Source: Naegleria gruberi (Eukaryota). From it: 64,000 bases of DNA. This document shows, piece by piece, positions 1 to 64,000 of this stretch. The notes under the pieces are model-generated. The model had not been told where the DNA came from. It did not search any database and was given only the letters and a program-made list of their open reading frames with translations. The stretch is from the NCBI GenBank assembly GCA_000004985.1, contig GG738863.1; one strand, 5' to 3'. The first letter of the stretch is position 1; every line of letters begins with the position of its first letter. The translations under genes and the position numbers were made by a program.

Positions 1-1
1 C

Positions 2-448
2 AAAATTGATGAATATGAAAAGGAATTATTTGGAGAAAAATTGGCTAATCCTGATAGTACTTTTATTTTGGGAGTTCAAATCAGAAAGAATTTACAGGAA
101 AATCTTTTCCACAATACTCCAGTGAGTATTTACTGGGACTGTGCAAAGCAAAGAATATCAGCCCTTGACACGAAAAAGTATAAGAAGGTCATTATCTTCC
201 TTACAAGTGATTATGTTCCTGCATATGATGAAGCCAAACATGTATTTAGTGAAATGAAAATTAAGGGAATTGAAATATCACTTGTTCACATGCCTCAAAA
301 CGTTCCAAAATCTAGATCTGTAGAATCTGTTCAAACTGCCTTGGTTGACTTGTATGTCATGATGAAAGCAGATGATTTAATTATGAGTGAAAAATCTACA
401 TGTAAGTTTATTGAAATATTTGACAATATTTACAAACTGGTTTGTTAA
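2..448 (+). CDS. 3'-terminal fragment of a glycosyltransferase-like protein (fucosyltransferase motif-III-like); the gene starts upstream of the window
   Basis: The open frame runs from window base 2 to TAA at 446-448 (ORF track 41..448). The C-terminal motif '...VDLYVMMKADDLIMSEKSTCKFIEIF' resembles the conserved C-terminal motif of GT11/GT23/GT65-type fucosyltransferases. The family assignment is weak. Confidence 0.3.
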   Translation, partial: KIDEYEKELFGEKLANPDSTFILGVQIRKNLQENLFHNTPVSIYWDCAKQRISALDTKKYKKVIIFLTSDYVPAYDEAKHVFSEMKIKGIEISLVHMPQNVPKSRSVESVQTALVDLYVMMKADDLIMSEKSTCKFIEIFDNIYKLVC

Positions 449-646
449 TCATTGCAAGTTGGTCATATTATTCACGCAACAGTAGGTATTGCTCCACTTT
501 TTGTCAGAAAGGAAGGAAAATATGAAAAGATTCCAAAATGTGTTAGAGCTCAAAATAGTGAACCTTGGTAAGTTATTTTTCGATATCAATATGTATTTAT
601 TAGATAATAGGTTCCATTTAAGATTTAGAAATCAACTCGAAAATTG

Positions 647-3162
647 TTAATCAGATTGGATTGCTTTCAAGCTGAGATGATCTGATACACTCTTTGGACT
701 TTCTAATGCTAAACGACTTGATCTAAGACCAAGTTTAATACATTTTTCAATTGGTTCATTACAGAAAAGTCCAAAGCAGAAACCTCCTGAAAAATTATCT
801 CCACATCCAGTTACATTAGCTATGAAATTATCAAGTCAGATATTGTAAGCTATCAGTACTATCAAAAATTTAACATACCTTTTGGATCAGAAAGTTTTTC
901 TCTCTTTGGAAGAGCTGCATAGTGCTTGATTACCATCTTCCCCTTTATAAGTGTTCCGTGTTTGAGTCCTTTTGGTCCCTTTTCAAAGAATTAGAATTTT
1001 AGTTTGTGATTCATTCAACTTACCTGTGTTAAAAGTACATGTTTAACACCAGCTTTTTCCAGTAAAACTCTAATGCATTCATCAGCACTCAGTTTAACTT
1101 TCTTTTTCAAAAAACATTCCACAATACTGAATATTTCATGCTCATTAGGTTTGATATAAGTGATACAATCAAGAATTCCTGCAACAACAGCTTGTTTTGA
1201 TTTGGCAATACTCGTTGGATCTAAAAAGATGTCTGCTTTACCTTTCAATAATTTTCCAATTGCTTTAAACGCATCGACTGAGGAGTTACTATCAAGGAAT
1301 ACTATTGGATTTTGCTTTTCATTAAGGAGGGAAGTAAGGCACATCTCTATATGTTTGGTGGTTTTGGCATCTGTCAAAATTGCCATATCTGCGACAGCTG
1401 AAACAAGTTCACCAGTTTCATCAATCAAACAATTGTAAATTGCAGTTCTGTTGTTAATATTCTCAATGACTGTTTTTTCTGGCATTTGAATTTTAAGATC
1501 ATACCTCAAGTGAGAAAGAAGAGATTTTCCAAATGTATCACCACCAACAGATGTAACAAAGTTGAGTGGTAATTTTTCAAGATCTGTAGATTGTAAGAGT
1601 TTTGAAAGTACCTCACATACATTTCTTGCCACACCCCCAAATGACAGTGACACTGATCCAATATTTGAAGTTTTTGGAATTAGTTTAGTACCTTGTTGTG
1701 GTTGACACATAATATCCAAAACTGAACCACCAATAACCACTAATTCACGTTTCTGGGATCCAAACGGAGATAATTTAGAAAGAATTGATTTTTTCTCAGA
1801 TTGAGCATACTTTAAGTCGTCCAAGAATAAATCTTTTTCTAGAGTTTTATCCAAGAAGTTATTCTATTTATTTACAATTACTGTTATTATAGTCAAATAA
1901 ATAATTAAATAAAGAAACTTACATTTAAACTTTGAATCTTGCTCAATTCAACAGCAATTTGTGCACCAACACGAGCATTATTCAAGACTAATTCAATATT
2001 AGCTCTCAAACTATCACCTCCTGTTAATTCGTTAATACGTTGTAAAAGGAATGGTGTAACATCCTTTCCTTTAACGTTCTTTTGTTTGGCTTCAGTTAAA
2101 CCTTGTTCAATGGCCTTAGTCAAGATTCCAGATTTAGCTTCCAAATTTTCTGGAATTGGAACAGCAACCAACATTCCAGAATTTAATCCAAGTTGAAGAT
2201 TTGAATTAATTAATTTGGCACATTCAAGAGGTGAATCCAATCTACAATGAGCTTTACAACCACTCTTTGATGTAAAGAAAGCAGGGAATTCATCAGTTTG
2301 ATAAGATGCTACTGTCACACCTTGAGTTTCTAAATATTCAAGAGTTCTTGGAATATCCAAAATTGATTTAACACCAGCAGAAACTACCAATGTTGGTGTT
2401 CTTCCTAATTCTGTCAAATCACTACTAACATCCATTGGATCAATTTCATTATTATTTAAAACTCTATGTACACCTCCAATACCACCTGTGACAAAGACAT
2501 GAATTCCAAAACGATGAGCCAAAAGCATTGTTGCAGAAACAGTAGTAGCACCATGTTTTTGTTGACTACAAACCAAAGCAACATCTCTTCTCGAACACTT
2601 TACAACTTTCTTTTCAGATCCTAATTTTCCAAATTTATCCAATTCTTGATCATTAATTCCAACATGAATAATACCATCAATAATACAAATAGTGGCAGGT
2701 GTAGCACCATATTTTCTAATTTGATCTTCAACACGTTTAGCAGTTTCAATATTCTTTGGATAAGGCATTCCATGACTATATTCATCGTTAAATTATTATT
2801 CAATTATTATTTAATATATATTTAAATTCAATATTAATATTAATTATTATTCATTGATCAAAAGATGATGAATTTAATTAAACTAACCTAATAATTGTAG
2901 ATTCCAATGCAACAACAGCCTTGTTTTGTGCGAGGGCTTCCTTTACTTCGGGATGAATCTTAGCCTTCACCAAATAATCATCAAATGAATTCTTCTTAGC
3001 CTTTTCAGCAGACATTGTATTCACTAAATTCGATTGATGTTGTTCAACAACAACAGGAGAGGAATTGCTTTGGAACATGGAAGCGAATTGGCTCACTCTA
3101 TTGGAAAACAAATGATCCCTGATGGAAAATAATCTTCTTTGTGTTGTATCGTTGTTTTGCAT
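647..3162 (-). CDS. Bifunctional pseudouridine-5'-phosphate glycosidase (PsuG/IndA-like) and pseudouridine kinase (pfkB family), fused; 5 exons
   Basis: Exons on the minus strand are 2888..3162, 1923..2775, 1024..1863, 879..978 and 647..819; introns are 2776-2887, 1864-1922, 979-1023 and 820-878, all GT..AG and in phase. Exon 1 ends '...KIHPEVKEALAQNKAVVALESTII' and splices to 'S-HGMPYP...', matching the bacterial PsuG N-terminus 'VALESTIISHGMPYP'. Exons 1-2 give a full PsuG (track ORFs 2878..3162 and 1905..2768). Exon 3 (track ORF 1015..1854) continues in frame into a pfkB kinase ('VVIGGSVLD', 'GGVARNV'). Exon 5 carries the pfkB signature 'NVTGCGDNFSGGF'. The stop TAA is the reverse complement of 647-649. 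Confidence 0.8.
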
Positions 3163-3346
3163 TTTTTTATTACTTTAATATTTAAATATTAAATATATTT
3201 AAATATATTAAAGTATTAAAGAATGAACAGATGGTAAAAAGAATGGAAAATCATGTGGTGAAAATTGTCTTTGGAGATTCTTTTTGGAAATCTTCAAAAC
3301 TCCTCGGAAATTCCATGAATTAGTTTCTTCCACACACTAGAAAAAA

Positions 3347-4579
3347 ATGTCTTCATCATCGGAGGAACACGTGCTGTCGCCAGCTCTATCAACATTCAGT
3401 GCTGTCGTATGTAAATCTATTCATCAGATGATTGTGAGATTTGAATTTATTGATTTTTAATATCTTTGTAATTGATGATTTTAATGATTTGATGTTTTAT
3501 TATATATATATTGGAATGATTATGATGATGAATTTAAATGATATAATATATAAACAGGTCGGATGGGGATACTTTTTAGCATGGTCACTTTCTTTCTATC
3601 CACAAAATATTGAAAATTTCTGGAGAAAGAGTGTTGTTGGTTTGAGTTTTGATTTCTTAACTTTGAATATTATTGGACACACTTCCTATTTGATTTTTAA
3701 TTGTGTCTTGTTTTGGGATCCTACAATGAAAAAGCAATATGAACTTAGACATGGCTCAGCAAATGTTCAAACAAATGATGTCTTCTTTTCGATACATGCA
3801 GTGACTTTGACTGCCATTACAATTTTCCAATGTATTATTTATGAAAGAGGTGGACAAACTATTTCAGTTCTTGCTAGAGGAATCAGTTTGACATTATTAT
3901 TGTCAATTAGTGTTGCTGTCTTTTTGGCATTAGGTACTAGAATTGAATGGGTTGACTTTTTAAAGTATTTGGGTATTGTTAAATTGTAAGTTTTTATTGA
4001 TGAGTGTTAAATATTGAAATTTGAAAAGAATTGTTACAACTATTAAGGTATGTTTTCAATCAGTTGATTAATTAATTAATTCATTCATGTAATTGGAAAT
4101 AGTACATTCCACAAGCATTTATCAATTACAAGAGAAAATTAACAATTGGTTGGAGTATTGGAAATATCTTGTTAGATTTTTCAGGAGGAGCTCTTTCAAT
4201 TTTCCAAATGGTCATTGATGGAATTAATACTGGAGATTGGACACCTTTCTATGGTGATTTCGTCAAGACAGGACTTGGATTCCTTTCTATTGCATTTGAT
4301 ATAATTTTCATGATTCAACATTACATTCTCTATCGTAAGAATAATAAGGAATATTATGCAAAATTGAGAGAAACTAGGAAATTATCCATGTATGAGGAGA
4401 TGTGGGAATCATTCAAGACTAAATTCCTTTCAAGATTTAGAAAGAATAGACAACAAGAACAACAACATTCTGAGAATGGTGAATCAAATCCATTAATTGT
4501 TTCGAATGGTGAATCTTTGGAACCAAATAATGTTCAATCATCAACATATTATCAACAAGAAGAAGGAGCAACCATTTAA
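3347..4579 (+). CDS. CTNS: Cystinosin homolog (PQ-loop lysosomal cystine transporter), 4 exons including a 19-nt micro-exon
   Basis: Exons are 3347..3406, 3558..3985, 4029..4047 and 4103..4579. Strong similarity to cystinosin: 'VGWGYFLAWSLSFYPQ...RKSVVGLSFDFLTLNIIG' (PQ-loop 1), 'NDVFFSIHAVTLTAI...YERGGQ' and 'GWSIGNILLDFSGGALSIFQM...IQHYILYRK' (PQ-loop 2). The micro-exon AATTGTTACAACTATTAAG restores '...KL-IVTTIK-YIPQAF', which aligns to human 'IKL-AVTLVK-YFPQAY'. Without it the flanking exons are out of phase. Confidence 0.8.
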
Positions 4580-5072
4580 ATTATGATGGTGTTTTTTTTC
4601 ATTTCAAACATTAAATATTTTGTAAAATACAATACTTCCATTTTTGTATAAACCACTATCTTGTTTAAATTGTCACTAATCATTAGAACAACAATAATTG
4701 TAAAAGATGGTTGTACAATATACCTTACGGTAGTTAGTTTCAGTTTTATGATTCCAAGTCAAGTTGATGAGTACTGACACTATTTCATAAAATAATCAAT
4801 TGACATCTAATGCCAATCTCTGCTTAATGTTTATTGTTTCGCTCTCATTACTCTTTTGAAATCGATTAATGCCTCAAAGATTCAATGTAACGATTTCGTA
4901 CTGGTAGTAGTTTCCTCACTTTTTTACAAATAACCGAAAAACAGTCAACTAACAAAAAACCTTCAAATGCTGTCACTATCTCCTTAATTTTAATGTAAAT
5001 TCATAAAGAAAAAGAGACAACCCTCACACTAATCAACAAGTGTATTTTAATTGGTTGACGTTTAAGAGAAAT

Positions 5073-5951
5073 ATGACTTCACTTTCAAATCCATCAAATA
5101 ACATTTTGACAGCTGCCATGAATAATTCAACAACTACTTACCATCAACAAGGACATGTTTCTGCAGAACAAGCCCTCCTTTCCATGATTAGTAATCCAAA
5201 CTCCTCCCTTTCATTCTCCAATCCAAATTCCAATAATTCCTTCTTACTTTCCAATAACTTTAATCCTCAACAACAACAACAAATCTTGAATTCCTCAGCC
5301 AATTCTCAACAGATTATGAATCCACAACAAGAATATATGAAACACATTCTAATGAGAATTGATCAATCTCTTGATATGGTCTCTCAAAATCTGTTCAGAG
5401 ATTTGGACAGTTTCTACATGATGCAACATCAAGAATTTAATCATAAAAAGAGAAAGTTTTCAGAATATGAAGAAGCTACTGATTACAATCATGGTATTGG
5501 TGCTGAGTTGATTGAAGAAGGTGCAGAGGGAGTTGGTTGTAACAATTCGTCCAATTTCGTCCAAAAATCAGCAGTTCAACAAGAACTTGACAATGAATCC
5601 ATTGAATTACAACAATTAACTGATTGGATTCAAAATAAGAAGAGAAAGAAGAATACCTCTCAAGGAAAAAAGGAAATTTTGAAAGAATTCTTAATGCTCA
5701 ATAAGAATAATCCATATCCATCCGAAAGACAGAAAGAAATTTTCATGAAGGAACTTGATTACGATAAGAAACAACTTAACAATTGGTTTATCAATGCTAG
5801 AAAGAGATATTTACGAAAGAAGGTTGCCTATACTCCACCAGATATTAGAAACAAGAATGAATTTGATTCAATTTTGGAAAATAAGGTTAGACAATCAATG
5901 AATCACAATGGAGAGGAAGATGATGAGCAGAATTTACCACTTCTCAACTAG
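5073..5951 (+). CDS. TALE-class homeodomain transcription factor, Asn/Gln/Ser-rich
   Basis: The homeodomain 'KKRKKNTSQGKKEILKEFLMLNKNNPYPSERQKEIFMKELDYDKKQLNNWFINARKRYLRK' carries the 3-aa loop extension (PYP) and the WFINARKR helix-3 signature. The first in-frame ATG is at 5073; the track ORF starts at 5040 on an alternative start codon. Confidence 0.8.
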   Translation: MTSLSNPSNNILTAAMNNSTTTYHQQGHVSAEQALLSMISNPNSSLSFSNPNSNNSFLLSNNFNPQQQQQILNSSANSQQIMNPQQEYMKHILMRIDQSLDMVSQNLFRDLDSFYMMQHQEFNHKKRKFSEYEEATDYNHGIGAELIEEGAEGVGCNNSSNFVQKSAVQQELDNESIELQQLTDWIQNKKRKKNTSQGKKEILKEFLMLNKNNPYPSERQKEIFMKELDYDKKQLNNWFINARKRYLRKKVAYTPPDIRNKNEFDSILENKVRQSMNHNGEEDDEQNLPLLN

Positions 5952-6043
5952 GAAATGCTAGGAAATTTAATATTCGAGTTTAAATAAATGTAAAATAATA
6001 ATGTAAATAATTATTCGAAAGTGAAAAAGTTTAATCAAAAAAA

Positions 6044-11971: not shown

Positions 11972-14764
11972 ATGCAACAACAACCTAGCGAACAAGACTT
12001 GACCAACTTTGGTATTTTGATGCAAAATACACTCAATCATGAAAATAATGTGAGAGTGAAGGGTATGTAGATTGTTGTAGGAATGTATATATAACGTATT
12101 TTTTAACAGCGGAACAAGATTTAAAGTTAATGGAAAAACAACCTGGTTTTGTGATGTTGCTCCTTACTTTTATTTCTAAACAATTAACTAACAAGTTTAT
12201 GGGTGCCCAATCGGCTATTATATTGAAGAATTTGGTGAAGAGAGATTGGGATGTTGGTTTGATTTTAAAAAACGAAGACAAGGAAATTATAAAATCAGGA
12301 GTTGTGGATATTATGATTAGAAGTGATCTTACAATCCAAGAAATTTTGTCAGAAGTAATTACAATCATTAGTTTACATGATTTTTACAAGAATTGGACAA
12401 CTTTACTGCCAGTAAGTTTATTATTTTCAACCATTTTCTTAAGAAATTTAGTATTTGGTTAATTTATTAAAAACAAACACTGATAAATTTGAATCCACTA
12501 GAGGTGTACTTGCCACTTGCCATTCACTTTTTAAGAAATATAGAGAACAAGCTAAATCCGACGAAATTGAAGATGAATTAATTTATATTATGAAAGAATT
12601 TGCCGAACCAATGTTAGGTTTATTCCAACATTTCATTTCCCTTGTCCCACAAATTACCGACCCAGCCAGCTTGAAATCAATTTTTACATGCATTAATTTA
12701 CTTTTGGAAATTTACTATTCTTTGAATTGGATTGATATTCCTGAATTTTTCGAAGATCACCTTCCAGAATATAGCAACATCTTCCTCTTCCTTTTGAATT
12801 ACCAAAATTCTTCCCTCGATAATAATCTCTATGAAGAACCAAGTCTTCTAGATACAGCTCAATCCCTTGTGTTCCAATCAATTAACTTGTATTTGGAGAA
12901 ATATGATGAAGCTTTCATTCCTTATGTTGAAAACTTTGCTACAGCAACATGGCAATTAATATCAAAGCTGGACATGAAGATCAAGTACGATAATCTTGTA
13001 TCTAAAGCTCTAGAATTTTTGACCGTCACAAGTAGAAGTGAAAAGCACATTATTTTCAAGGATGCACTTCCTGCAATTTGTGAAAATATTATCATTCCAA
13101 ACATCTCACTTCGTGAAGAAGATGAAATCATCTTCTCAGAAGAACCAATCGAATATATAAGAAGAGATATTGAAGGATCTGATTCTGACTCTAGAAGAAA
13201 ATCAGCTAGTGAACTCATCAAAACTCTTAGTATTCACTACGAAANNNNNNNNNNNNNNNNNNNNNNNNNNNNNNNNNNNNNNNNNNNNNNNNNNATTTGT
13301 ACATTCAGACAACACTTACCAATTGAATCATTCACCACCATCTTCCCATTGATTCTTAACTTGTTGAACTCCCCAGAACCTGTTGTTCTTTCTTATGCAG
13401 CTTGGTGTATTGAAAGACTTCTTACAGTCAAGGAAGATAATGGAAAGCCAAGATATTCCCAAGTTGAAATTTTGCCATATGCCCAAACATTATTGCAAGG
13501 ATTATTCTCTGCTTTGGATAACACTGAAGAAAATGAATATATTATGAAAGCCATTATGAGAGCTACAGCTGTATTGAAGGAACAAATGAAGCCAATTATG
13601 CCTGCATACATTTCCAAGATTACTAGCGTGCTTTCTGAAGTCTGTAAAAATCCAAACAATCCAATGTTTAACCACTATTTATTCGAGTCATATGCTACTG
13701 TAATCAAATTCAACAGTGATTACATTTCAGAGTTTGAAGCATCTCTTTTCCCACCATTCCAAACCATCCTGAACCAAGGCATTGAAGAATTCACACCTTA
13801 TGTTTTCCAACTTATTTCTCAACTTTTGACTGTAAGACAAGCTCCATTACCTGCTATTTATATTAGTTTGTTCCCTAATTTCTTACAAGCCCATTTGTGG
13901 GAAAGTGAAGGAAACATTCCAGGTCTCGTTGCCTTTACCTCCACTTTGATTACCAAGGCTCCTCAAGAACTTGGAAAGAATAATCAACTCGAACAAGTTT
14001 TGGGCATTTTCCAAACATTGGTCAAATCTAACACCAAAGACTACCATGGTTTCCGTATTTTGGACAGTATCATCCATGCTCTCCCATACGAAACTGTTGC
14101 TAATTTCCTCCAAGGAATTTTCTTCGTCTTGTTTGGAAGACTTCAATCTAAGAAGACTGGTCAATTCTTGAGATGTTTGATCCTTTTCTTCTCTAACTTT
14201 GCTGTTAGATATGGAGCTGATAAGCTTATCCAAGCCATTAATCAAATCCAAGCAAACATTTTCTCTCAACTTGCAAAGGCTGTGTGGCAATCCTCATTAA
14301 GAAAGGTTACAGGTAAAATTGAAAAGAAGGTCTGTGCTGTTGCTTTGATCAAGATTTTATTCAATACAGATCTTATTCAATCATCTGCTGACACATGGAA
14401 GATGCTTATTTCAGAGCTTGCTCTCTTCCTCAACCCAACAACAGATTCAAAGAATGAATTTGATGAAGATGATGAACAACATGACGATGAAGAAACAGTC
14501 CTTCAAACTGAAAAGGGAATTTCTGGAGGTTACAAAGTTACTTTCACCAAGCTCAGTTTTGCTGCTATGGGTATTGAAGATCCTGTACGTGAGGTTCAAA
14601 ATACCAGACTTCATTTCTGTCAATCTCTCACCAATTTCATTTCACCATTAGACCCACAACAAGTTCAGTTTGTTAAATCTTTAATTGTTTCTAATCCTGA
14701 ATCTGCTCAAGCCATTCTCGTTTTGATGCAAAACAATGGGTTCAGCACTTCGTTTTTACAATAA
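11972..14764 (+). CDS. CSE1: Exportin-2 (CSE1/CAS importin-alpha re-exporter), 3 exons
   Basis: Exons are 11972..12062, 12110..12411 and 12452..14764; introns are 12063-12109 and 12412-12451 (40 nt). Exon 3 contains the 50-N gap at 13245-13294. Extensive identity to CAS, for example 'RGVLATCHSLFKKYR', 'EDEIIFSEEPIEYIRRDIEGSDSDSRRKSA', 'ENEYIMKAIMRA', 'NPMFNHYLFES', 'EFTPYVFQLISQLL' and 'KKVCAVALIKIL'. Track ORF 12130..12462 is exon 2. Confidence 0.85.
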
Positions 14765-18692: not shown

Positions 18693-21138
18693 TTATTCCA
18701 TTAAATCAATTAATTGTTTGATAAATCTCAAATCACTAGCATTATCACGCTTTTCGCTTAAAACTTTCCAATAAAGAGAAAAATCATTCAGATTAGTTTT
18801 TTTCCTAAACCTCAAGTAGCTTGTGAAAAGTTGACTTGCCTTTTTTACCCTTCCTCCAAAGAAAAGCTTGGTTCTTTCCTGATACTCAGAGGCTTGATCT
18901 TCATATGGTAATAAATTATTAGAATAAAAATCATTGACCTCTCTCACTAGAGACATGTAAGGATACTTTAAATTCACATATGATTTCAAAAATATTCTAT
19001 TCAGTTCACTAACAACCTTTTCATCTCCTTTGTCAGTCTCAGAAAATTTGGATCTCACAATTAAACAAATTAGAGTGTCATAATTATGTTTTGATTCTAT
19101 TAGATCGGGTGGTGGATTCGAAATTACCTCCTCATCCAGTAAAGAATCAACATAATTGGTATTAGTAATTCTTAAATGTGGAATGGAAGACCTTAAATCG
19201 GATTTGATTTGAAAACTCCTATAATTGTTCGTAAAGTTGATACATTCGAATCCTTCGAAAAACATTGGAGGGAATTGATTAAAATCATTCACTGCCTCCT
19301 TGATATCTTCAATTGAATCGAAGAAGAGTTGCTTGACTTGATCTTTCCAATTGTATTGCTCTCCCAAGTCTCTCCAAACAATTTCCTCTTTCATTGTACT
19401 GAGGTTTCTACATCCACAATAAATAATTCTTCCTGATTGAGGTTGGTATGTGAAAAAGAAAGTAAAATTACTATTTTGTTCTGTTGGTTTCTTCATATCT
19501 AATTTTTCCCATAATTTTAAGAACGGCTCAGATATTTCATTTACAAAATCTCTATCCAAAATCCATTCATTTTGCCATTTCTGACTTTCGTTACCAAAGC
19601 TAAATCTCCATTCATTTCTATAATAGTACAAATTAACTCTGGTGCCAGAAGGGTTCTCTAATATTGCATAGTCTGATAGTTTTAGCTTAGTAGTGAATCC
19701 ATTGCCATGTCTTTTATCCAAGTTGTGATATTCTTCAGACAAGAACCTTGGCACACATAAAGGAGAGTAATGAGTCTCATTCTCGTTAGAAATGGCTTCT
19801 ATTATAGAACCATTACATTCCAAATACAAGTCCATTTCTCTAAAACTTAATGAGTTTTCTGCTTCTTGGAATACAAAGTCAATATCCAATTTGAAAAGAT
19901 TGCAATCATTTGGATTTGAAACGTTATCTCCCTCAATAAATATAGGTGTTACACTAATACCAAATACTCTATTTAGTGAAAAAGGTCCAAAGCTTAAAGT
20001 GATATTTTCGTAATCTCTCCTTTTAAAAGTAGATTCCTTGGAAAATGTTGTGACAAACTTATTCAAAATATCAGAAACTATTAAATTAGACTCCCTCTCC
20101 ATGGATAAACATTCTTTTCTGCATTCTCTCATAACAGCTTTAATATCCTCTTTATATTCAACCATCCATTTATCGTAAAGTGTTTTAACCAACGATTCAT
20201 ACTCTTCCCAGGTTGTATAATTGTCTGTTCCATAAACCACTTCATCATAAAGTGCATTTGTTTCCAAATAATCATAAATACACCCTCCAAACGCAATTTG
20301 ATATCCATATTTACAAAATCTAACAATTAAAGTTAAAAAAAATAAATTAAATAATTACATACCTAATTCCATGAGCCAAATTCTTTTTGACTTTTTTCAA
20401 TGCATCCTTCTTCTCCTTTTCTGTGATGTATTGCCCTTTTTGAAGACCTACCCAAAAACGGTGTGCCTTATTGAAACTAAAATTCAATTCATGTAATATT
20501 GCATTTCTTGATCTTGGCAATCTCAAAAACCAGCTATTCCAATTTTCTCTCCATCTTTTCATCTTTTCATCCTCGAATACTACAAATGCATCATTTGGTT
20601 GTTGTACTGAAAGTAAAATGACAGGTAAATGAATATGAGCATAGCCCAGTAAAACAGAAGTGTTCATCATCATAACCTCAAGCTCATAACTGACTAATTG
20701 ACCATTTGAATCAGAAACTGTTATTTCACTATGTAAATTATATTGAGTATTTCTTGAATAACCTCCGTCTGATGAGTTTGAGGAACAGAGATCATCAGCA
20801 ATAAATAATAAATCAAAATCAGAATCATTGACATTAGTATTAAACACTCTAGATCCATACAANNNNNNNNNNNNNNNNNNNNNNNNNNNNNNNNNNNNNN
20901 NNNNNNNNNNNNNNNNNNNNNNNNNNNNNNNNNNNNNNNNNNAATTTTCCCTGACATGATTCAATAGCTGATCCGATGAGAAGGGAACCCCTTCCGAGCC
21001 TTTCTTATAATTTTTACTTGGCCTACTCGACTCAGGTTCATACTTTTCATTGTATTTTAAAGCTTTAACCTCCGAGCCATTGTCAGATTTTGTTAAGGAG
21101 GCCTCTGATGAGCTTTGAATCATTTTTTTAAAGTTCAT
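18693..21138 (-). CDS. Nucleotidyltransferase-fold (polymerase-beta superfamily) protein with a large uncharacterised C-terminal domain; 2 exons
   Basis: Exon 1 is 20363..21138 and contains the 80-N gap at 20863-20942. Exon 2 is 18693..20319. The intron is 20320-20362 (43 nt, GTATGT..TAG), phase 2, joining '...HGI-R-FCKYGYQIAFGG...ETNALYDE...'. The NTase signature is 'LYGSRVFNTNVNDSDFDLLFIADD' (hG[GS]-x8-DxD). The 520-aa C-terminal part has no match I recognise. Confidence 0.45.
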
Positions 21139-25460: not shown

Positions 25461-26110
25461 ATGTCGAACAGTTTCAATCTTTTGGAACACGCTTCAAACA
25501 GCGATCCACTCGAAATTGCTTCATCTGCCAAGAAGGAAGTTAAGCAAGAAAAGCCAAAAGTTGAAGAAAAGAAGCCAGTTCAACAACAAAGAAAGCCAAA
25601 GCCAACTTCTGCTCCATCCGAAGTTGTCGAAGAAGGTTTCCAAGGAACCCGTTCTAAGACTAGAGGTGGTAGACAACAACACCAAGGATACCAACCACCA
25701 AAGAAGGGTAGAACTTTCGATCGTCATGTCTCTGGTACTGGTANNNNNNNNNNNNNNNNNNNNNNNNNNNNNNNNNNNNNNNNNNNNNNNNNNTTCCAAA
25801 AGGAAAAGAAGAAGGTTGAAAAGGCTGCTGAAAAGAGTCTGCTGCTTCTAAGCCAAAGACTGTTGCTGTTTCTGAATTCTTAGATACTGCTTCAATTGAA
25901 AAGATCAAGGAAAGAAGAGATAAGGAATTGTTGGAAGGTCCAAAGCAACCAAGAGGTCCAAGACAAGACAGACCAGAAAGAACTGATAGAAAGGGTGGTA
26001 AGCCACAAAACAAGGGTCAAAAGGGTGCCAAGCCAGCCTCAGGCCAAAAGAAGCCACGTCCAGTCATCAACAAGGAAAAGGACTTCCCTGCTCTCAGCCC
26101 ACAAAACTAA
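25461..26110 (+). CDS. Stm1/SERBP1/HABP4-family mRNA-binding, ribosome-associated protein; interrupted by a gap and an apparent frameshift
   Basis: N-terminus 'MSNSFNLLEH...RGGRQQHQGYQPPKKGRTFDRHVSGTG' (Stm1_N-like). The C-terminus 'PRGPRQDRPERTDRKGGKPQNKGQKGAKP...KEKDFPAL' is typical of the family. The 50-N gap at 25744-25793 and a +2 frame change near 25838 (AAEKS|SAASKPKTVAVSEF) split it into three track ORFs. Confidence 0.6.
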
Positions 26111-27540: not shown

Positions 27541-27614
27541 AAATAAAAAATACGCCGTAAGGGAGTCGAACCCTTGACCTTCAGCGTGTAAAGCTGACGA
27601 TCTAACCAACTGAT
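27541..27614 (-). tRNA. tRNA-Val (anticodon UAC)
   Basis: The reverse complement GCGCCGTTAGATCAGTTGGTTAGATCGTCAGCTTTACACGCTGAAGGTCAAGGGTTCGACTCCCTTACGGCGTA folds into a canonical cloverleaf with a 7-bp acceptor stem (G1·U terminal pair). The D-arm is GATC/GATC with an AGTTGGTTA loop. The anticodon stem is TCAGC/GCTGA, the loop is TTTACAC (anticodon TAC). The T-arm is AAGGG-TTCGACT-CCCTT. The discriminator is A. There is no intron and no encoded CCA. Confidence 0.85.
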
Positions 27615-27821
27615 CTAACGGCGCTTGCAACATTTCCAAAAAATTTCCTAACTAATCAAATCAACATTAAAATCCTAAATGTAAACTTGTCCTTTTTCTT
27701 GTTCTTAATAGCTATCAGTAAAGATAAAGTAAATTTTCATTTCTTCTCCTCACTTTCAATAGTTTCATCAAATAATAAATTTATATTTAAATAAATTCGC
27801 AAATGAACAAGAAGTAAAAAA

Positions 27822-32212: not shown

Positions 32213-35200
32213 ATGGATAGAGGAGGTTCATCATCCAGTCAAAATGATCTGATGAACTCTCCGAATAATACAAATCCAACAAATTTAGACTTGTTCAATA
32301 TTATTAAAGAGTTGGTAACAAAAGTAAAGTAAGTGCAAATTATTGTAAAGAATAGAGAGGATTTATTAATAATCGGAATAGTTCGTTGGAAAATCAAGTG
32401 ACTGATCTTAAAAACCAAATTTCAGCCTCTTCTTCTTCATCATCTAATAGTAATAATAATAGTAGCGAACCTAAGAAAAAGAAAAAAGAGGAAAAGAAAT
32501 CAAAGAAAGAGGATAAGAAGGATGTTAAAACCAAAGAAAATAAGAAAACAAAGAAGAATGAAAAAAAGAAAAAGTCACAACAATTATCTCCTTCTACACC
32601 GCCTCTACTTGAGCAACCTCTTCCTCCTCCTTCTGTAGAGATTCCGATTCCTAGTGCTGAAGTGTTGGATGATTTAACGCCTCCGATTATGGAAGAAACA
32701 TGTGAAGTTTCCTTGTTGGCACAACCAAATTTTGTTGAGCAAATGCTTCAAATGGATGAAATTGAGGAAGATAGAATGTATGAATCTCATTCACATTATG
32801 AACCTGGAGATGAGTATGAAAATGTAATGGATTTGGATGAAGCTGAATATTGTGATATAAGTGATGAAGATCCAGAAAGAATAGAACATGCAAGAGAGGA
32901 AGATCTCTTGAAAAGAAAAGAGGAAGAGGAATGCACAAATGAGGATTTACTTGGATTATCAAAGCAATTCCCTCAAATGATGTTGGATAAATTATACTCA
33001 CATCAAAAGAGAGGAGTAAAGTTTCTTTGGGAAAATCTTGCAAAGGGAAATGGCTGTATTCTTGCTGATTTTATGGGCATGGGAAAAACTTTACAAACAG
33101 CTTCGTATGTATCATGATCATTATGAAATAATTTATTAACATTGAAAGATTTTTACATATATTTTTCGCTGAGAAGCAAGCTAAAACTGCTCTTATTGTT
33201 TCACCAGCATCTGTAAATACTCATTGGGAAAGAGAATTTAAAACAATTGAAAAATGGGTTTCTGATCCTAATATTTCATGTATTAAACCTTTCCTACTCT
33301 CATCAAAGAACTCAATTCAGGATAGAAAAAAAACAACAGCAAATTGGCAACAAAATGGTGGTGTTATGATAACATCCTATGATATGTTTAGAACACTTTG
33401 TGTAGATGAAGATTTTAAGGAATATTTACTAAACCCAGGACCTGATGTCATAGTTTTGGATGAAGGGCACAAAATTCGTCATTTATCTTCAAAAATTACT
33501 CGTGCTTTAAACTCTGTAAATACACAAAAGAGGATAATTTTAACTGGATATCCATTTCAAAACAATTTATTGGAATATTGGACAATGATTAATTTTGTAT
33601 GTCCAATGTACTTGGGAGAAAAGAATGAATTCAAGAGGAAATATTCCAAGCCAATTCAAAAAGGACAACTCTCCAAAATACCCTATGAACGTAGAATAGC
33701 TAGAAGAAGATCATGGCTATTATATGAAAAAGTTAAATCCATCATTTTGAGAAGAGATGCATCCCTTTTGAAAAAGTTGTTGCCTCAAAAACAAGAAATT
33801 CTATTGACCTTGTCAAATAGTGAAATTCAAAGAAAAATGTACAAAATTCTGATTGATTCTCTCAAATTAATTGGAAAGCCGAGTATCTTCTGGACCTATG
33901 ATGTGGTTATCATGCTTTGTAATCATCCAGATGTTCTGTATAATTACTATAAGTGGAAAGAAAAACAAGCAGAAACCCAAAAAATTGAGAAGGAAGCCAA
34001 AGATTCTAAAAAGAAGGAAAAAGAATCGTATTCAGCTGAAGAAGAAACAAATAATGGTGAAGTGTTTGATCCCTCAATAGATGATGAGGAGATAGAATCA
34101 TACATAGATAAAGAGGTTGATACTGGGGAAGAAGGAAAAGAACCTCAAAAGAAGGATAGTACTGAAGCAATAGCAAAAACTATTTTATCAGAAATATTTA
34201 AATGTCCAGAAAATATGGGATACAAGAGAGGAGCACTAGATAATGGAGGTAAAATGATACTCTTATTCAGTGTTATGTTTCAATGTAAAAGCGTAGGAGA
34301 TCGTCTCATAGTATTCAGTAGAAGTATTAACACCTTGAATTTCATTGAAAACACTCTTAAACGATACAATAAGGATAAGGATGCAAAAGGTCAACTTAAT
34401 TTTATGCGATTTGATGGAAGTACTCCATTTGATCAAAGACAATCCTGTATCGATAAGATTAACGATAATACTAACAATATTACAGTTCTACTTATTTCAA
34501 CACTTGCCGGTTGTGAAGGTATTAATTTAATGGGAGCAAATAGAGTTGCACTCATTGATGTAAATTGGAACCCTTCTCATGATAGTNNNNNNNNNNNNNN
34601 NNNNNNNNNNNNNNNNNNNNNNNNNNNNNNNNNNNNNNNNNNNNNNNNNNNNNNNNNNNNNNNNNNNNNNNNNNNNNNNNNNNNNNNNNNNNNNNNNNNN
34701 NNNNNNNNNNNNNNNNNNNNNNNNNNNNNNNNNNNNNNNNNNNNNNNNNNNNNNNNNNNNNNNNNNNNNNNNNNNNNNNNNNNNNNNNNNNNNNNNNNNN
34801 NNNNNNNNNNNNNNNNNNNNNNNNNNNNNNNNNNTTAAAGAAAATACCAAGTGGATCAAACGAGCAGATTTTAGAGATCAATTATTACGAGATGATCCTC
34901 TCAATATTCTGACTGAGGAAGAAAAACAGTTGGCTCATAGCGAAAATGAATTTGAATCTGTTTATGGAGCTAAAAGAAATTATGATAGGAAAAAAGTAGA
35001 TTCAACTCAAGAACAGAAAGCCAAAGCAACTACTGTCCCAACGATACCTAAGAGGCCAGAAGAGCCAATTAATACCAATTATCTCAAAGATCAGGAATCG
35101 CTTTGGTTGAGAAGACAACAAATAATAGTGGAAAAGGAAACTGTAGAAGCCTCAAAGCTTTTACAAATTTTACAAACAAAAGATATTCCACTAACAGTTG

Positions 35201-48971: not shown

Positions 48972-50348
48972 ATGAGATCTTCTCTTAAACTCACCAAGAT
49001 CCTCTCCAAGGCTTCTACTCAACAAAGATATTACTCTGCTGAATTAAAGTCAATTTTGGCTGCTCAAATTCCACAAAAGCAAGCCGAACTCAAGGAAATT
49101 AAAGAAAAATTTGGTAATGTCTCCCTCGGTGATACTACTGTTAGAATGGCCTATGAAGGTATGAGAGGTATCAAGGGTTTAGTCACTGAAACTTCTCTCT
49201 TGGATCCTGAAGAAGGTATCAGATTCAGAGGTTACAGCATTCCAGAATGTCAAGAAAAGTTGACAAAGGCTCAAGGTGGTCAAGAACCTCTCCCAGAAGC
49301 TATGTTGTGGTTGTTGTTAACTGGTGAAGTCCCAACTCCTCAACAAACCGAAGGTTTGAGAGCTGACTTGCAACAAAGAGCCCAACAAGTTGATCCAAAA
49401 ACTGTTGAATTCGTTAAATCCATCCCAAATAATCTCCACCCAATGACACAATTCTCTATGGCTATCTTGGCTTTGCAAAAGGACTCTAAGTTTGCTCAAG
49501 CTTATCAAGATGGTGTTCACAAGAGAGAATACTGGATTCATACTTATGAAGATGTTTTGAACTGTATTGCTCGTTTGCCACTTGTTGCTTCTATTATCTA
49601 CAGAAAGACTTATCACAATGGTCAATATATTAAGAGTGATTCATCATTGGATTGGGCTGCCGATTATGCCTCAATGATGGGTTTCGGTGGAAACAAGCAA
49701 ATTGCTGAATTGTTCCGTTTATATTTGTCTATTCACACTGACCATGAAGGTGGTAACGTTTCTGCTCACGCTACTCACCTTGTTGGTTCTGCTCTCTCCG
49801 ATCCATACTTGTCACTCTCTGCTGGTATGAACGGTTTGGCTGGTCCATTGCATGGTTTGGCCAATCAAGAAGTTTTGAAATGGTTGAAGGAAGTTCAAAA
49901 GGATTTGAATGGAAGAGAACCAACTAAGGAAGTTTTAAGACAATTAATTTGGGATACTTTGAATGGTGGACGTGTCGTTCCAGGTTACGGTCACGCTGTT
50001 TTGAGAAAGACTGACCCAAGATATACTTGTCAAAGAGAATTTGCTCAAAAGTACATGAAGGACGATCCATTGTTCAAATTGGTTTCTACTTTATATGAAG
50101 TTGTTCCTGATGTTTTGACTGAACACGGAAAGACCAAGAATCCATGGCCAAACGTTGATGCCCACTCTGGTTGTTTGTTGCAACATTACGGACTCGTTGA
50201 AGAAGATTATTACACTGTCATGTTTGGTGTTTCTCGTGGTATTGGTGTTTTGTCTAGTTTATTGTGGGACAGAGCTTTGGGTCTCCCAATTGAAAGACCA
50301 AAATCTGTGACTACTGAATGGATTAAGAAACACGTCAAGATGAACTAA
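48972..50348 (+). CDS. CIT: Citrate synthase, mitochondrial
   Basis: 458-aa single exon with an N-terminal presequence-like '[15 protein letters not shown]'. Diagnostic citrate synthase segments are '[30 protein letters not shown]', '[12 protein letters not shown]', '[12 protein letters not shown]' and '[16 protein letters not shown]'. Confidence 0.95.
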
Positions 50349-50421: not shown

Positions 50422-52068
50422 ATGAATATTGCTAGAAGATTAGTTTCAAAGAAAAAGAAGAGGTATCAAGAAGGTGGTTTTGATCTTGGTAAGTGTCAGT
50501 AATCACAAATATTGACAGTTATTATAGATTTGACATATGTAACACCAAATATTATTGCCATGGGTTTTCCGAGTGTTGGTATGTATTTTTACATCATCAT
50601 TATAATTCATCATCATAATTAATTTTAATTCATATCATTATAAAGGAAAGGAAGCATTATTTCGTAATCCAATGGAAGAAGTACAAAGAATGTTAAAAAG
50701 AAATCACGGAGAACATTACAAGGTTTATAATTTATGTTCTGAAAAAACCTATGAACCTTCTTCTTTTGAAGGAAGAGTTGAAAGATTTCCATTTGATGGT
50801 TTGTTTCTAATAATATTATTATTATTAATGTTTATATTAATGTTTATATTTAAATAATTCATTATTGAAACATTGATGAAATTCATTAATTCAGATCATA
50901 ATGCTCCACCATTTGAAATGATGTTACCTTGTTGTCGTTCTATGGATGAATGGTTAAAACAAGATCCAAGAAATGTTGCAATTATTCACTGTAAAGCAGG
51001 TAAAGGTAAAGTACTTGAGTATAATAATATTATAATCAATGCTGAATTTTAAAATCATTTTTACAATAATAATAACATATCTAATATATATATAAATATG
51101 TAAATATATCTAATATATATATAAATATATGTAAATATCTAATATAAATATATATATATATAGGAAGAACTGGTACAATGATATGTGCCTATTTATTATA
51201 TAATGGATCTCATAAAGATCCAATCAATTCAATGGATTTCTATGCAGAATCTAGAACTAGAAATAAGGAAGGTGTAACAATTCCTTCTCAGAGACGTTAT
51301 GTTGAATATTTTAGTGAATATGTTAAAAATGGATTTCAATATCCAAGACCAAATGCAACACTTTATTTAGATTTAATGTTATTATTTAATCCACCTATTT
51401 CTATTTTAGGAGCAAGTTTTAAAATGGAAATTAGAGATAAAGATGGAGAAGTTTTATGTTCATTTAAATATAAATCTAAAAGAGAAAGTGAATCTTTAAT
51501 TACAATTCCATTACAACAAGTTAAAAAAAAGATTCCAATTTGTGGAGATTTAAAAATTTTATTTTATGAAGTTAATTTAACAAAAACTAAATTATTATTC
51601 CATTTATGGTTAAATACTCAATTTATACCACAAAATAATAGTGTAACATTACAAAAAATAGAAATTGATAAAATTAAAAGTAAGAGTACATTCCCAGATG
51701 ATTTTAAATTAGAATTACAATTTTCAGAAACACCAAAAGAAGATTTAGAAAAATTAAAATCACCTAAAAAGGTAACAAGTAGAAATATCAATTCAAGTTC
51801 TAATTTATTAGATCGTTCAAGTTCCTCTTCAACACTTGATATTGAAGAAGATTCAAGTATTGTAATTGATGAAGATGAAGATGAAGATAGAACAACAATT
51901 TCAAATAATTGTGGAAATGAAGAAGTTGATGATGAAATTATTGATTCAACAATTGATTATGATTCTGATAATTCATCTGGATGTGAATATAATGATGGTT
52001 ATCAAGATGAAAATGATTTTATTAATCAATTAGAACAAAAATATAATCAATTAAAATTAAATTGTTAA
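50422..52068 (+). CDS. PTEN: PTEN-like phosphatidylinositol 3-phosphatase (phosphatase + C2 domains with a C-terminal acidic extension), 5 exons
   Basis: Exons are 50422..50488, 50528..50578, 50646..50798, 50895..51005 and 51164..52068, all phase-1 joins. The product '[47 protein letters not shown]...HYKVYNLCSE...FPFD|DHNAPPFEMM...AIIHCKAGKG|RTGTMICAYLL...GVTIPSQRRYVEYFS' is highly similar to human PTEN ('[28 protein letters not shown]', 'HCKAGKGRTG', 'KGVTIPSQRRYVYYYS'). The track ORFs 50672..50857 and 51178..52068 are exons 3 and 5. Confidence 0.85.
51078..51165. repeat. AT-rich tandem repeat (about 30-bp unit, about 3 copies) inside PTEN intron 4
   Basis: 'atatctaatatatatataaatatgtaaat' recurs three times with minor variation immediately upstream of the acceptor TATAG|GA at 51163. 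Confidence 0.5.
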
Positions 52069-52235
52069 CAAAAATATTTGATATATATTTCATGATAATG
52101 ATAAAGATATGATAAAGATATGATGAATGATTATATTTAAATGTACATATGAGAATAAATGATTATTTTAATAATAATAATATTTTTGATATATATTCAA
52201 TAATTATTATAATATTAAAAATAAAATTGAAAAAA

Positions 52236-53291
52236 ATGTCTCAATTAGCATCTTCAAATAATGTTGCAGGAGGAGGTACTGAAAAGAAGGCTATAAAAAA
52301 GCCTTTAAAAAAGGCTTCAACCAAATCATCAAGTCAATCATTGGAAATTAAAAAGAAAACATCAACTAGGAAATCCAAAGCAGCATCAACAACATCTAAT
52401 AATGATCATGATGGGTTTCTTGATACAACAGCAACAACAACAACATCAAATGTAGTTAAAAAACCTGGAACTTGGTGGTTTTGGTATTATAAACAAGCCC
52501 TCGCAACTGGAAGTGAAATTCCTAAATTTACAATTCAAGGAAGAAAAAGTTTATTAGGATTAATATTAGGAAATAGAAATCAATTATCAAGTGATGAATT
52601 AACAAAAAGCCATTGTTTAATTTTCTTTCCAAAGGCTGATCACTCAACTGATCAATTTACAACTTCTTTATTACAATCATTTAAATCATCGGTAGTATTA
52701 TCAAAACAACAAAAGAATATTCATATTTTTATTACTTGTCCAAGTTTGGAAACATTTGATTTGAATACTAAAAATGTTCCATCTGGTATTAATATTTGGG
52801 CAGATTTAAATGGTGAAATTGCAAATTTATTTGGAATGAGACCTTTAATTCAAGATATTAATTTGGATGATTTATTATCTGATGAAAAAAAGAAGAATAC
52901 TTATTCTAAACAAACTATTATTGGAATGTTTTTCACTTTGGATAAAAAGATTGTAAAATCACCTGCTTTTCAACCAAAATTACAAACTGTTACTTTGGAT
53001 ATTATAAAGAGTATTTATGATTTTATGGATAAATCTCAATATAATTTTGCTAAAATTACTAATAAGGATTCATTGGCATCTGATTTGAGTGAAAATGATT
53101 TGAAAACTCTTCATGCAGCTGCCTATAATGATTATCAAAGAGAATTAAAACAAATGGAATCTGATTTGAATCCATCAAAGAAATCTACAAGTAGTAGTAC
53201 TAATAAGAAAAAGACTACAACATCCAAAACCAAATCAATTAACAAGAATACACCAACAAAAGAACCACCCCAACGTTATTCAAAGCTTTGA
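52236..53291 (+). CDS. Hypothetical basic Ser/Thr/Lys-rich protein; the middle region may be thioredoxin-like
   Basis: ATG at 52236 (track ORF 52149 starts on an alternative codon). N- and C-termini are K/S/T-rich. The central 200 aa ('WWFWYYKQALATGSEIPKFTIQGRK...CLIFFPKADHSTDQF...IFITCPSLETFD') are loosely redoxin-like. The fold call is low-confidence. Confidence 0.35.
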   Translation: MSQLASSNNVAGGGTEKKAIKKPLKKASTKSSSQSLEIKKKTSTRKSKAASTTSNNDHDGFLDTTATTTTSNVVKKPGTWWFWYYKQALATGSEIPKFTIQGRKSLLGLILGNRNQLSSDELTKSHCLIFFPKADHSTDQFTTSLLQSFKSSVVLSKQQKNIHIFITCPSLETFDLNTKNVPSGINIWADLNGEIANLFGMRPLIQDINLDDLLSDEKKKNTYSKQTIIGMFFTLDKKIVKSPAFQPKLQTVTLDIIKSIYDFMDKSQYNFAKITNKDSLASDLSENDLKTLHAAAYNDYQRELKQMESDLNPSKKSTSSSTNKKKTTTSKTKSINKNTPTKEPPQRYSKL

Positions 53292-53382
53292 ATTAATTTT
53301 ATTTACATATATATGAATATATAATTATTATTATAATAATAATGAAATTAAGAGGAGGGGTTAAAGGAGGAAGAAATTGAAA

Positions 53383-54291
53383 TTATTCAATTTTAATTTC
53401 ATCAGTATATTCTTGTTTAATCTTTAACAATGGAGAGAGAATATTTGGATTTGAAATTACAGTTTGATCAAAACTGAATTGAGCATTAAAAGAATGATTA
53501 TTCATCAAATCTTTCCAAGCAGATTCTCTAATTGAAAATTCACGTAATAAGTGATCTTCTCCAAATTTATGAAATAATCTAGTTTCAATACATCTAACAC
53601 AAACACCATCAACACGTAAAAAGAATCTCATTAAAACATAAAAACAATGATTCATAACACGAATTTTGACAGTTGAATGTGAAACACCATGATCATGTAA
53701 ATCATCTTCAAATAATACAATTTCATCATAGAATAAAATTGGATCATCTTTTCTTTTTAAAAGTTCATAATCAATTTTTCTTGATGTTTGATTTGCTTGT
53801 TGATTTGTTGTTCCTTTGTAAATTGTTGTAAATGTCCAATCAATTTTATCATCTCTTTCAGATACAATAGTTTCTTCTCCATCAAGTTTCTTATTTGCCC
53901 AAGTATCAGAACAATTTACTTTAATTTTTTGTAAATGTTCAATTTGATTAATTACTTGATTTCTTGCAAATTTAATACAATCTTTTGGAAGATAACTAAA
54001 TTCAAAATTACCATGTTTAATTGATAAATATGAATTAAATGTTTGTTCTGGAAGTGCATAAACATCCAATTCATCTTTTAATTCATCCATTTCTGTTTGA
54101 TTTAAAATTGGTGTTTTTAATGTTTGGAATTTCCATTCATGAAGAGTAAAATTTTCTTCCTGATTTGTTGCATTGGTTGTAAAATTATTTGATGATGAAT
54201 GAATCATTGGAGTTGTAAGATTACTTGATGTTGAAGAGGCTACTTTTTTCATTATGGTTGGGTTGGTGTTTAAAGGAAAACGAGTTGTCAT
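53383..54291 (-). CDS. TIP41: TIP41-like protein (TIPRL; PP2A-family phosphatase regulator)
   Basis: 'DWTFTTIYKGT', 'ILFYDEIVLFEDDLHDHGVSHSTVKIRVMNHCFYVLMRFFLRVDGVCVRCIETRLFH' and 'LLREFSIRES' closely follow human TIPRL: 'DWTYTTDYKGT', '[50 protein letters not shown]', 'MLREYTSRES'. Confidence 0.8.
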   Translation of the reverse strand: MTTRFPLNTNPTIMKKVASSTSSNLTTPMIHSSSNNFTTNATNQEENFTLHEWKFQTLKTPILNQTEMDELKDELDVYALPEQTFNSYLSIKHGNFEFSYLPKDCIKFARNQVINQIEHLQKIKVNCSDTWANKKLDGEETIVSERDDKIDWTFTTIYKGTTNQQANQTSRKIDYELLKRKDDPILFYDEIVLFEDDLHDHGVSHSTVKIRVMNHCFYVLMRFFLRVDGVCVRCIETRLFHKFGEDHLLREFSIRESAWKDLMNNHSFNAQFSFDQTVISNPNILSPLLKIKQEYTDEIKIE

Positions 54292-54534
54292 TTTTTTATA
54301 TTTTTATTGTGTTTGATGATTAATAATATCAAAAGAATCCCGTGATGATGAATCTTGTAGTTGATTAAAGATCAGATTCTGAAACAATCTACAACAAGGT
54401 TATTTGTAGAATTGATTGAATACTAACTTGTAAACTTTTGAAATATATTTAGTCAAGTTCTTCCAGGCCTTTGATCAATTATTATATTAATAATAATATT
54501 TAATATTATTATTTGATTAAAATAGATAAAAAAT

Positions 54535-54825
54535 ATGACTTCAACAACAACCACTAGTACTCCAATAGTTCTTGATAATCAATCTTCATCATCATTATCA
54601 TCAATCTTTTCTGTATTCACACCTGTATTTTCTAAATTATCATCCGTAGTTGTTGTTCCTTTTATTTCGGGTGCTCTTATATCGTTGGGAGAATATTCAG
54701 TCAGAATGATGTATTTACGTTATCAAAAATTATTTAATCCTTCATCAAAATATGATCCAATGGCTACATTTGTTACTAATGGTATACCTTTAAAGAGAAG
54801 AGTAGTAAATAATGAAAAGAAATAA
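54535..54825 (+). CDS. Hypothetical small membrane protein (96 aa)
   Basis: Ser/Thr-rich N-terminus followed by one predicted TM segment 'SSVVVVPFISGALISLG' and a basic tail. ORF only. Confidence 0.3.
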   Translation: MTSTTTTSTPIVLDNQSSSSLSSIFSVFTPVFSKLSSVVVVPFISGALISLGEYSVRMMYLRYQKLFNPSSKYDPMATFVTNGIPLKRRVVNNEKK

Positions 54826-55088
54826 ATTCGGAATAATTGAAATTTTAATATTGAACTGAATCTCTCTAATAATATCAACATCAATAGAAATTGTTTGTCA
54901 ATATCAATCAATATCATAATATAATAATTATTTCACTCAATCATGTTACTGATTTTTGGGAAGGTTTGATATAAAACACAAAATTAACAAACCTCCAAAA
55001 TCCTGTTAAGGTTCATTACAGGTACATATTGAGATATAACGTTTAAACTTTTAAAAAAAAGCCTAGATAACATTTTACTGTATTTATT

Positions 55089-56470: not shown

Positions 56471-56566
56471 ATTATTATACAAATGTTTCAATAAGATTAA
56501 TTTTCAATGCAACAGATAATAAACTATTTATGCGATTAAAATAATTTAAAATTCAAATTAAAAAAA

Positions 56567-57241: not shown

Positions 57242-57474
57242 TAACACTCTAAATTTAGGGTTTAACAAATAATTATCATAATAGGATGGGATAATTGAAT
57301 TGGATTTTGATTGTAAATATTTCAACATCATTTACAGGTTATATTATTGGGTGTATGATACACTTTGTTTGTACACTTTATTCACACATTTTGTAAACAA
57401 CATGCATGATAGAATTATTATAATAATAATATTGAATATTAATATATTTAATTACTTTTGTTCATGTTCTTGTT

Positions 57475-59908: not shown

Positions 59909-59909
59909 T

Positions 59910-62960: not shown

Positions 62961-63027
62961 AAAAATGGCGGGAAAGAGAAAAAATTGAGTGCTAGCATTT
63001 ACTCGAACACCCAAACTGTTAAAAAAA

Positions 63028-63979: not shown

Positions 63980-64000
63980 AAGAAGAATTGAAAATAATAA

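Follow-up and report, generated by a model that had tools for sequence, protein, structure and literature searches.

A five-exon gene on the minus strand

The 64,000-nucleotide window of Naegleria gruberi DNA analysed here (GenBank assembly GCA_000004985.1, contig GG738863.1) carries, on the minus strand between positions 647 and 3162, a gene that is predicted to encode two enzymes of pseudouridine breakdown in a single chain, with a pseudouridine-5'-phosphate glycosidase (PsuG) domain at the N terminus and a PfkB-family kinase domain at the C terminus. The gene consists of five exons and four AT-rich GT..AG introns and yields a 746-residue product. A first-pass annotation, made from the sequence without database searches, had pointed to three separate open reading frames (ORFs) at 2878..3162, 1905..2768 and 1015..1854, and had proposed that four GT..AG introns join the coding parts in frame. 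The three ORFs are present in the mechanical ORF list at exactly these positions, the introns agree in every coordinate, and the joins that were given are reproduced. Excision of the four introns leaves 2241 nt, that is 746 codons and a TAA stop (647-649), with zero internal stops, and the frame stays open across the exon 2/3 junction, where a stop codon had been raised as a possible objection.

Exon 1 (2888..3162, 275 nt) opens with the start codon at 3160-3162, which is the first ATG downstream of an in-frame TAA at 3175-3177, and the N. lovaniensis orthologue begins at the equivalent methionine (MLNNNAQRRLFSIRDHL). The exon encodes residues 1-91 and two nucleotides of the next codon, and covers an N-terminal extension together with the first part of the PsuG core, as far as ...VALESTII. 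Intron 1 (2776..2887, 112 nt, GTTAGT...TAG, 12% GC) falls in phase 2 within the codon for Ser92 and is followed by exon 2 (1923..2775, 853 nt; residues 92-376), which supplies the remaining PsuG domain, including the Mn2+ ligand D207 and the catalytic lysine K228. Intron 2 (1864..1922, 59 nt, GTAAGT...TAG, 15% GC) lies in phase 0 after residue 376 and joins the PsuG part to exon 3 (1024..1863, 840 nt; residues 377-656), which encodes a 42-residue linker and most of the kinase domain, with S442, Y519, N569, D591, K597 and E619. Over this 1923/1863 junction the predicted spliced sequence runs ...CAAAGTTTAAAT joined directly to AATAACTTCTTG.... Intron 3 (979..1023, 45 nt, GTAAGT...AAG) is again in phase 0, after residue 656; exon 4 (879..978, 100 nt) encodes residues 657-689 and one further nucleotide, and intron 4 (820..878, 59 nt, GTATGT...TAG) is in phase 1. 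Exon 5 (647..819, 173 nt; residues 690-746 and the stop codon) contains the PfkB signature TGCGDNFSGG with the catalytic Asp697 and ends in ...KAIQSD. At the protein level the four joins read ALESTII/SHGMPYP, SKIQSLN/NNFLDK, HVLLTQ/GPKGLKH and SDPK/ANVTGCGDNF, the slash marking the junction.

The introns share a common form. All four 5' splice sites follow GT(A/T)(A/T)GT, the 3' ends are AG, and GC content is 12-25% in the introns against 34-41% in the exons. The gene region as a whole has ~32% GC, which is typical of AT-rich protist nuclear DNA, and the first 4000 positions of the window are free of assembly gaps. The four-junction model lies far beyond chance: Pfam recovers Indigoidine_A end to end, and PfkB over nearly all of its profile, in the spliced product alone.

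Independent support for the splice model is comparative. The closest database relative is a 752-residue protein of N. lovaniensis that is 69% identical and covers 100% of the query, followed by proteins of Willaertia magna and Acrasis kona; with these as best relatives, the DNA can be placed in a Naegleria-like heterolobosean from its coding content. A seven-protein alignment is gap-free at all four junctions. We compared intron positions with the N. lovaniensis locus, whose exons could be reconstructed exactly, and with the W. magna locus. In N. lovaniensis an intron follows codon 376 in phase 0, the same codon and phase as intron 2 at the PsuG/kinase join, and another interrupts LLTQ/GP in phase 0, matching intron 3 in position and phase. 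Introns 1 and 4 have no counterpart in N. lovaniensis, where the genomic DNA is contiguous at both sites (ALESTIISHGMPYP and SEPNANVTGCGD, respectively), and the uninterrupted reading there is the one that the window gene gains only once spliced. All four junctions are thereby backed by orthologues at the level of sequence. The Willaertia orthologue (867 residues; JBEGDK010000031.1, 3001-6022) has four introns, after residues ~125, ~199, ~334 and ~389, mostly at different positions, and the sole one in common with Naegleria is that at the PsuG/linker boundary. The linker and the kinase domain of the Willaertia protein also hold long Asn-rich insertions. Between the two Naegleria species the PsuG half is better conserved than the kinase half (~84-86% and ~60-69%, respectively, by tblastx).

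Two catalytic domains of a known eukaryotic fusion

The PsuG-then-PfkB architecture of the 746-residue product, as first proposed, is borne out by Pfam, by matches to solved structures, by the alignment and by the N. lovaniensis introns. Indigoidine_A (PF04227) spans residues 72-368 and covers the entire profile (1-291 of 291; E 5.7e-128, 426.7 bits against a cut-off of 25.2), and PfkB (PF00294) spans residues 419-732 (profile 6-294 of 302; E 2.3e-24, 86.7 bits against a cut-off of 25.8). Both are recovered at this extent only in the spliced product. The best Protein Data Bank matches of the N-terminal half are Arabidopsis PUMY (8K05, E 2e-108) and E. coli PsuG (4GIJ, E 2e-84), while those of the C-terminal half are 3KZH, the Arabidopsis pseudouridine kinase PUKI (7C1X, a weak similarity at E 1e-10) and E. 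coli PsuK (7VKP), all of which rank above ribokinase.

Residues were read off HMMER alignments and then located in the product. Each of the active-site residues listed for PsuG and PUMY (PMC10761123) has a counterpart in the N-terminal half: R155, T188, D207 (the Mn2+ ligand), S209/S210, K228 (the catalytic lysine), E241, T332 and N351 align with Arabidopsis R116, T149, D164, S166, S167, K185 (K166 in E. coli), E198, T289 and N308. In the kinase half, following the assignments for the pseudouridine kinases (PMC9247573, PMC7797080), S442 corresponds to E. coli Ser30 and Arabidopsis Thr26, the position that reads N1 of pseudouridine, Y519 to E. coli Tyr97, N569 to E. coli Asn143 and Arabidopsis Asn137, and K597 to E. 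coli Lys170 and Arabidopsis Lys166. D591 and E619 occupy the places of the Mg-shell acids Glu160 and Glu186 of the Arabidopsis enzyme, the former being Asp as in bacteria, and the catalytic Asp of the GxGD motif is D697, within TGCGD. In these alignments both domains keep their catalytic residues and those that bind pseudouridine.

By homology to the characterised E. coli and Arabidopsis enzymes we infer both activities, and the following course of events is proposed. The PfkB domain, which is encoded second and acts first in the pathway, would use ATP to phosphorylate free pseudouridine released by RNA turnover, giving pseudouridine 5'-monophosphate. The Mn2+-dependent PsuG/PUMY domain would then cleave the C-C glycosidic bond, yielding uracil and ribose 5-phosphate, with Lys228 attacking the ring-opened ribose and forming a lysine-ribose adduct, as established for E. 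coli PsuG. In a fused enzyme the two activities would stay in 1:1 proportion and near one another, which plausibly limits the escape of pseudouridine monophosphate, an intermediate that is toxic on accumulation in Arabidopsis (PMC7797080). The pathway had been introduced as 'salvage/catabolism', of which catabolism is apt; 'salvage' is loose wording for a route that runs from pseudouridine through its monophosphate to uracil and ribose 5-phosphate.

The fusion itself is not new. We retrieved more than 100 two-domain homologues, with 37-69% identity over 89-100% of the query, many of which already bear the name 'pseudouridine-metabolizing bifunctional protein C1861.05'. The fused form has been named PsuKG and noted in metazoa, amoebozoa and fungi (PMC9247573), its occurrence in animals has been remarked on separately (PMC7797080), and the Candida albicans fusion gene has been described as PUG1, with an intron between its domain-coding parts (PMC12411936), as is likewise predicted for the Naegleria gene. 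By its sequence relationships the gene is an orthologue of Schizosaccharomyces pombe SPBC1861.05 and the PsuKG family, and a new, uncharacterised member of a well-documented eukaryotic type. Domain order (PsuG N-terminal, PfkB C-terminal), length (650-870 residues in the family) and active-site residues are held in common, and identity to fungal, animal, oomycete and dictyostelid members is 37-48% over ~90% of the length, compared with the 69% to N. lovaniensis. The Naegleria protein differs from other fusions in a longer N-terminal extension, a 4-residue insertion after GGVHR, its 42-residue linker and a kinase signature that reads GCGD in place of GAGD. In E. coli, PsuG (YeiN) and PsuK (YeiC) share the catalytic residues and, by homology, the chemistry; they are encoded by separate operon genes and have neither introns nor a targeting signal. 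The contrast with bacterial operons, on which the first-pass annotation had dwelt, is therefore real, yet it does not make the gene unusual, since the fusion is common and already described in eukaryotes.

Two considerations count against a functional fusion at this locus: our case for splicing in vivo is a comparative one throughout, and, according to the literature, the fused enzymes of the PsuG-PsuK family still await biochemical study (PMC7797080, PMC9247573). PsuG is trimeric and PsuK dimeric, and the question of how the two fit together within a single polypeptide has been raised (PMC9247573). We nevertheless hold, with strong confidence, that this is a fused and functional gene. For annotation, the name bifunctional pseudouridine kinase / pseudouridine-5'-phosphate glycosidase can confidently be given to the locus, whereas the closest public orthologue bears only the label 'hypothetical protein'.

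The N-terminal extension and predicted peroxisomal targeting

The extension of about 70 residues ahead of the PsuG core had been suggested as a possible targeting sequence. Its extent agrees with the start of the Pfam domain at residue 72, and the suggestion gains support and can be narrowed to a peroxisomal targeting signal of type 2 (PTS2). Codons 10-18 (3109..3135, minus strand; translation confirmed) encode the nonapeptide RLFSIRDHL, of the form R-L-x5-H-L, which fits both the R-[LIV]-x5-H-[LA] and the [RK]-[LVIQ]-x5-[HQ]-[LAF] consensus. N. lovaniensis has the identical nonapeptide, and conservation includes its close flanks, while residues 27-60 diverge. PTS2-like variants occur in Willaertia (RLNTLQNHF) and in two further fusion homologues (RINVLTKHL and RVAVLTRHL), and Acrasis has a near-match, RLSVIANHM. 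When the first 70 residues of the query were shuffled, the tight motif arose within the first 31 positions in 0.1% of cases (P 0.001). Across the family, a PTS2-like nonapeptide lies in the first 30 residues of 15 of the 61 non-redundant fusion N termini, at positions 3-19 in the 15 carriers, against 0.7±0.8 in shuffled sequences (a 20-fold enrichment; 2000 shuffles, maximum 4). Inspection of the C terminus, ...KAIQSD, revealed no targeting signal of type 1 (PTS1).

A parallel is found in plants, where pseudouridine catabolism operates in the peroxisome (PMC7797080, citing Chen & Witte 2020). Arabidopsis PUMY (At1g50510, also called IndA) bears the PTS2 RIx5HL and has been detected by peroxisome proteomics (PMC3355810, PMC7710942); we see this signal as RISNLQNHL at residues 9-17 of the 8K05 chain, one position ahead of the Naegleria nonapeptide at residues 10-18, so that both proteins carry R-[LI]-x5-H-L at their N termini in addition to sharing all named active-site residues. 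Its partner kinase PUKI (At1g49350) carries a PTS1, SML> (PMC3355810, PMC7710942). The two plant enzymes are thus separate polypeptides with their own signals, whereas in the Naegleria fusion, which ends in QSD, a single PTS2 would bring both activities to what would be the same two-step peroxisomal pathway. In this proposal PEX7, which is present in three Naegleria species (PMC7549135), would import the whole enzyme, as for the separate Arabidopsis enzymes. A full-text literature search found PTS2 discussed in connection with pseudouridine only for plants and Nannochloropsis, and nothing on heterolobosean or other protist fusions, though the primary paper on the peroxisomal pathway (Chen & Witte 2020) may mention it.

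It may be instead that the gene is fused as described and the extension has no part in peroxisomal import, the enzyme being cytosolic, or the extension a mitochondrial presequence or a disordered tail. Several observations speak for this and against a peroxisomal enzyme. Under a stricter PTS2 consensus, R-[LVIQ]-x-x-[LVIHQ]-[LSGAK]-x-[HQ]-[LAF], RLFSIRDHL fails at position 6, which is Arg. Many fusion homologues have no PTS2, among them those of Dictyostelium (which has a hydrophobic N terminus), fish and oomycetes, and the fusion of Nannochloropsis is regarded as non-peroxisomal (PMC7710942). In Naegleria neither PEX13 nor PEX14 has been detected (PMC7549135), so that its import machinery is atypical, and the four Arg within the first 30 residues of the extension are mildly presequence-like. 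Set against this are Asp5 and Asp16, which are atypical of a mitochondrial presequence, the presence of PEX7, the use of a PTS2 by the homologous plant enzyme (PMC3355810), the fact that conservation of the extension between two Naegleria species centres on the nonapeptide and its flanks, and the recurrence of the motif, far above expectation, among the diverse fusion N termini. On balance a non-peroxisomal extension seems rather unlikely, and PTS2-mediated targeting of the enzyme to peroxisomes is probable on sequence grounds. Taken as a whole, a single nuclear gene for a bifunctional pseudouridine-catabolising enzyme, most likely peroxisomal, is the best explanation of the locus, and one in which we have considerable confidence.

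A further step would be that one N-terminal PTS2 delivers the entire two-step pathway to heterolobosean peroxisomes, and that the peroxisomal location, far from being confined to plants, is ancient in eukaryotes and was lost repeatedly, in animals, dictyostelids and oomycetes. Antiquity is suggested because the signal of plant PUMY is of the same kind and because PTS2-like N termini occur in about a quarter of diverse fusions; we consider the chances of this scenario to be evenly poised. If the PTS2 works, it would place pseudouridine breakdown in the peroxisomes of Discoba as well, a location demonstrated to date in Arabidopsis alone, and would give the poorly characterised peroxisomes of Naegleria, where PEX13 and PEX14 went undetected, one more predicted PTS2 cargo. 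To our knowledge the pseudouridine breakdown pathway is absent from mammals. In pathogenic Naegleria the enzyme would in principle be parasite-specific, and nothing in the present analysis suggests that it is essential.

Kinase substrate, gene boundaries and genomic surroundings

The kinase half might phosphorylate another substrate, such as ribose or another nucleoside, in which case the two-step pathway would be incomplete. Its Pfam match is generic, and the score of the pseudouridine-kinase equivalog NF007355, which is the top NCBIfam model for this half, tells against a pseudouridine kinase: it reaches 54.2 bits, far under the curated cut-off of 540, with the NCBIfam ribokinase model only slightly lower (46 vs 54 bits). 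In the NCBIfam scan of the product no PsuG model matched, and the kinase match gave ranking information only. The shortfall says little about eukaryotic members, as the model was built on close bacterial relatives of YeiC. Because the score is so far below the cut-off, we assign the substrate from residues and context. The base-reading residues of the E. coli and Arabidopsis kinases (Ser30/Thr26, Tyr97, Asn143/Asn137 and Lys170/Lys166; PMC9247573, PMC7797080) are all conserved, both characterised pseudouridine kinases are among the best solved relatives, and its obligate fusion with PsuG throughout eukaryotes points to chemically coupled steps. A different kinase substrate is accordingly judged very unlikely.

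The notion of two adjacent, separately expressed genes, with PsuG ending inside intron 2 and an in-frame join to an independent kinase that is an artefact of in-silico splicing, draws on the stop that an unspliced intron 2 places after five extra codons (...SLNVSFFI*), which would leave a plausible stand-alone PsuG, on the separate genes of plants and bacteria (PMC7797080) and on the missing kinase half of some Candida species (PMC12411936), but we reject it as exceedingly improbable, given that the 59-nt spacer, with 15% GC and GTAAGT...TAG ends, is too short for a terminator and a promoter, that after residue 293 the next in-frame Met of the product is Met428, already within the kinase domain and past the conserved VIGGSVLD strand, that N. 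lovaniensis shares intron 2 in both position and phase and Willaertia has an intron there too, and that several relatives with both domains are complete ORFs from transcriptome assemblies. Within the single-gene reading, regulated retention of intron 2 could give a PsuG-only isoform that ends after the five intron codons (VSFFI), which we regard as a lesser possibility. The comparison with known fusions of Indigoidine_A and PfkB that had been proposed at the outset agrees with one continuous polypeptide, both in the absence of junction gaps and in the number of two-domain homologues.

The surroundings of the gene are conserved as well. Positions 1-6000 of the window are colinear with N. lovaniensis PYSW02000017.1, 2878-9256, with the order and orientation of neighbours kept. 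The tail of an XG_FTase-like gene (2-570, plus strand) precedes the PsuG-PsuK gene (647-3162, minus strand), which is followed by a gene for a PQ-loop protein (3441 to ~4579, plus strand; PF04193, E 1e-16), split by at least one intron, and by a homeobox-KN-like gene (~5300-5930), also a conserved neighbour in N. lovaniensis. An ORF at 41-448 was considered as a separate upstream gene and discarded: it has no Pfam match, and tblastx assigns it to the tail of the conserved XG_FTase-like neighbour. In W. magna a citrate synthase gene adjoins the PsuG-PsuK gene (980-2371 of the fetched locus). The window has a candidate 46 kb away, an intronless 458-residue ORF at 48972-50348 (plus strand) that is locally GC-rich (~40%) and looks citrate synthase-like by eye.

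Elsewhere in the window, runs of N of 50-1469 nt occupy 13245-13294, 20863-20942, 25744-25793, 34587-34834, 57542-58056 and 60930-62398. These create spurious long ORFs of 'X' and apparent GC values of 0-14% in bins near the 3' end, where something exotic was considered and set aside in favour of the N runs together with a modest real drop to ~26% GC. Over ~50500-64000, GC content with N excluded falls from ~32% to ~26%, and the ORFs are rich in homopolymer runs of Asn, Gln, Thr and Ser. A single tRNA-Val with anticodon TAC is predicted by ARAGORN at 27551-27624 on the minus strand.

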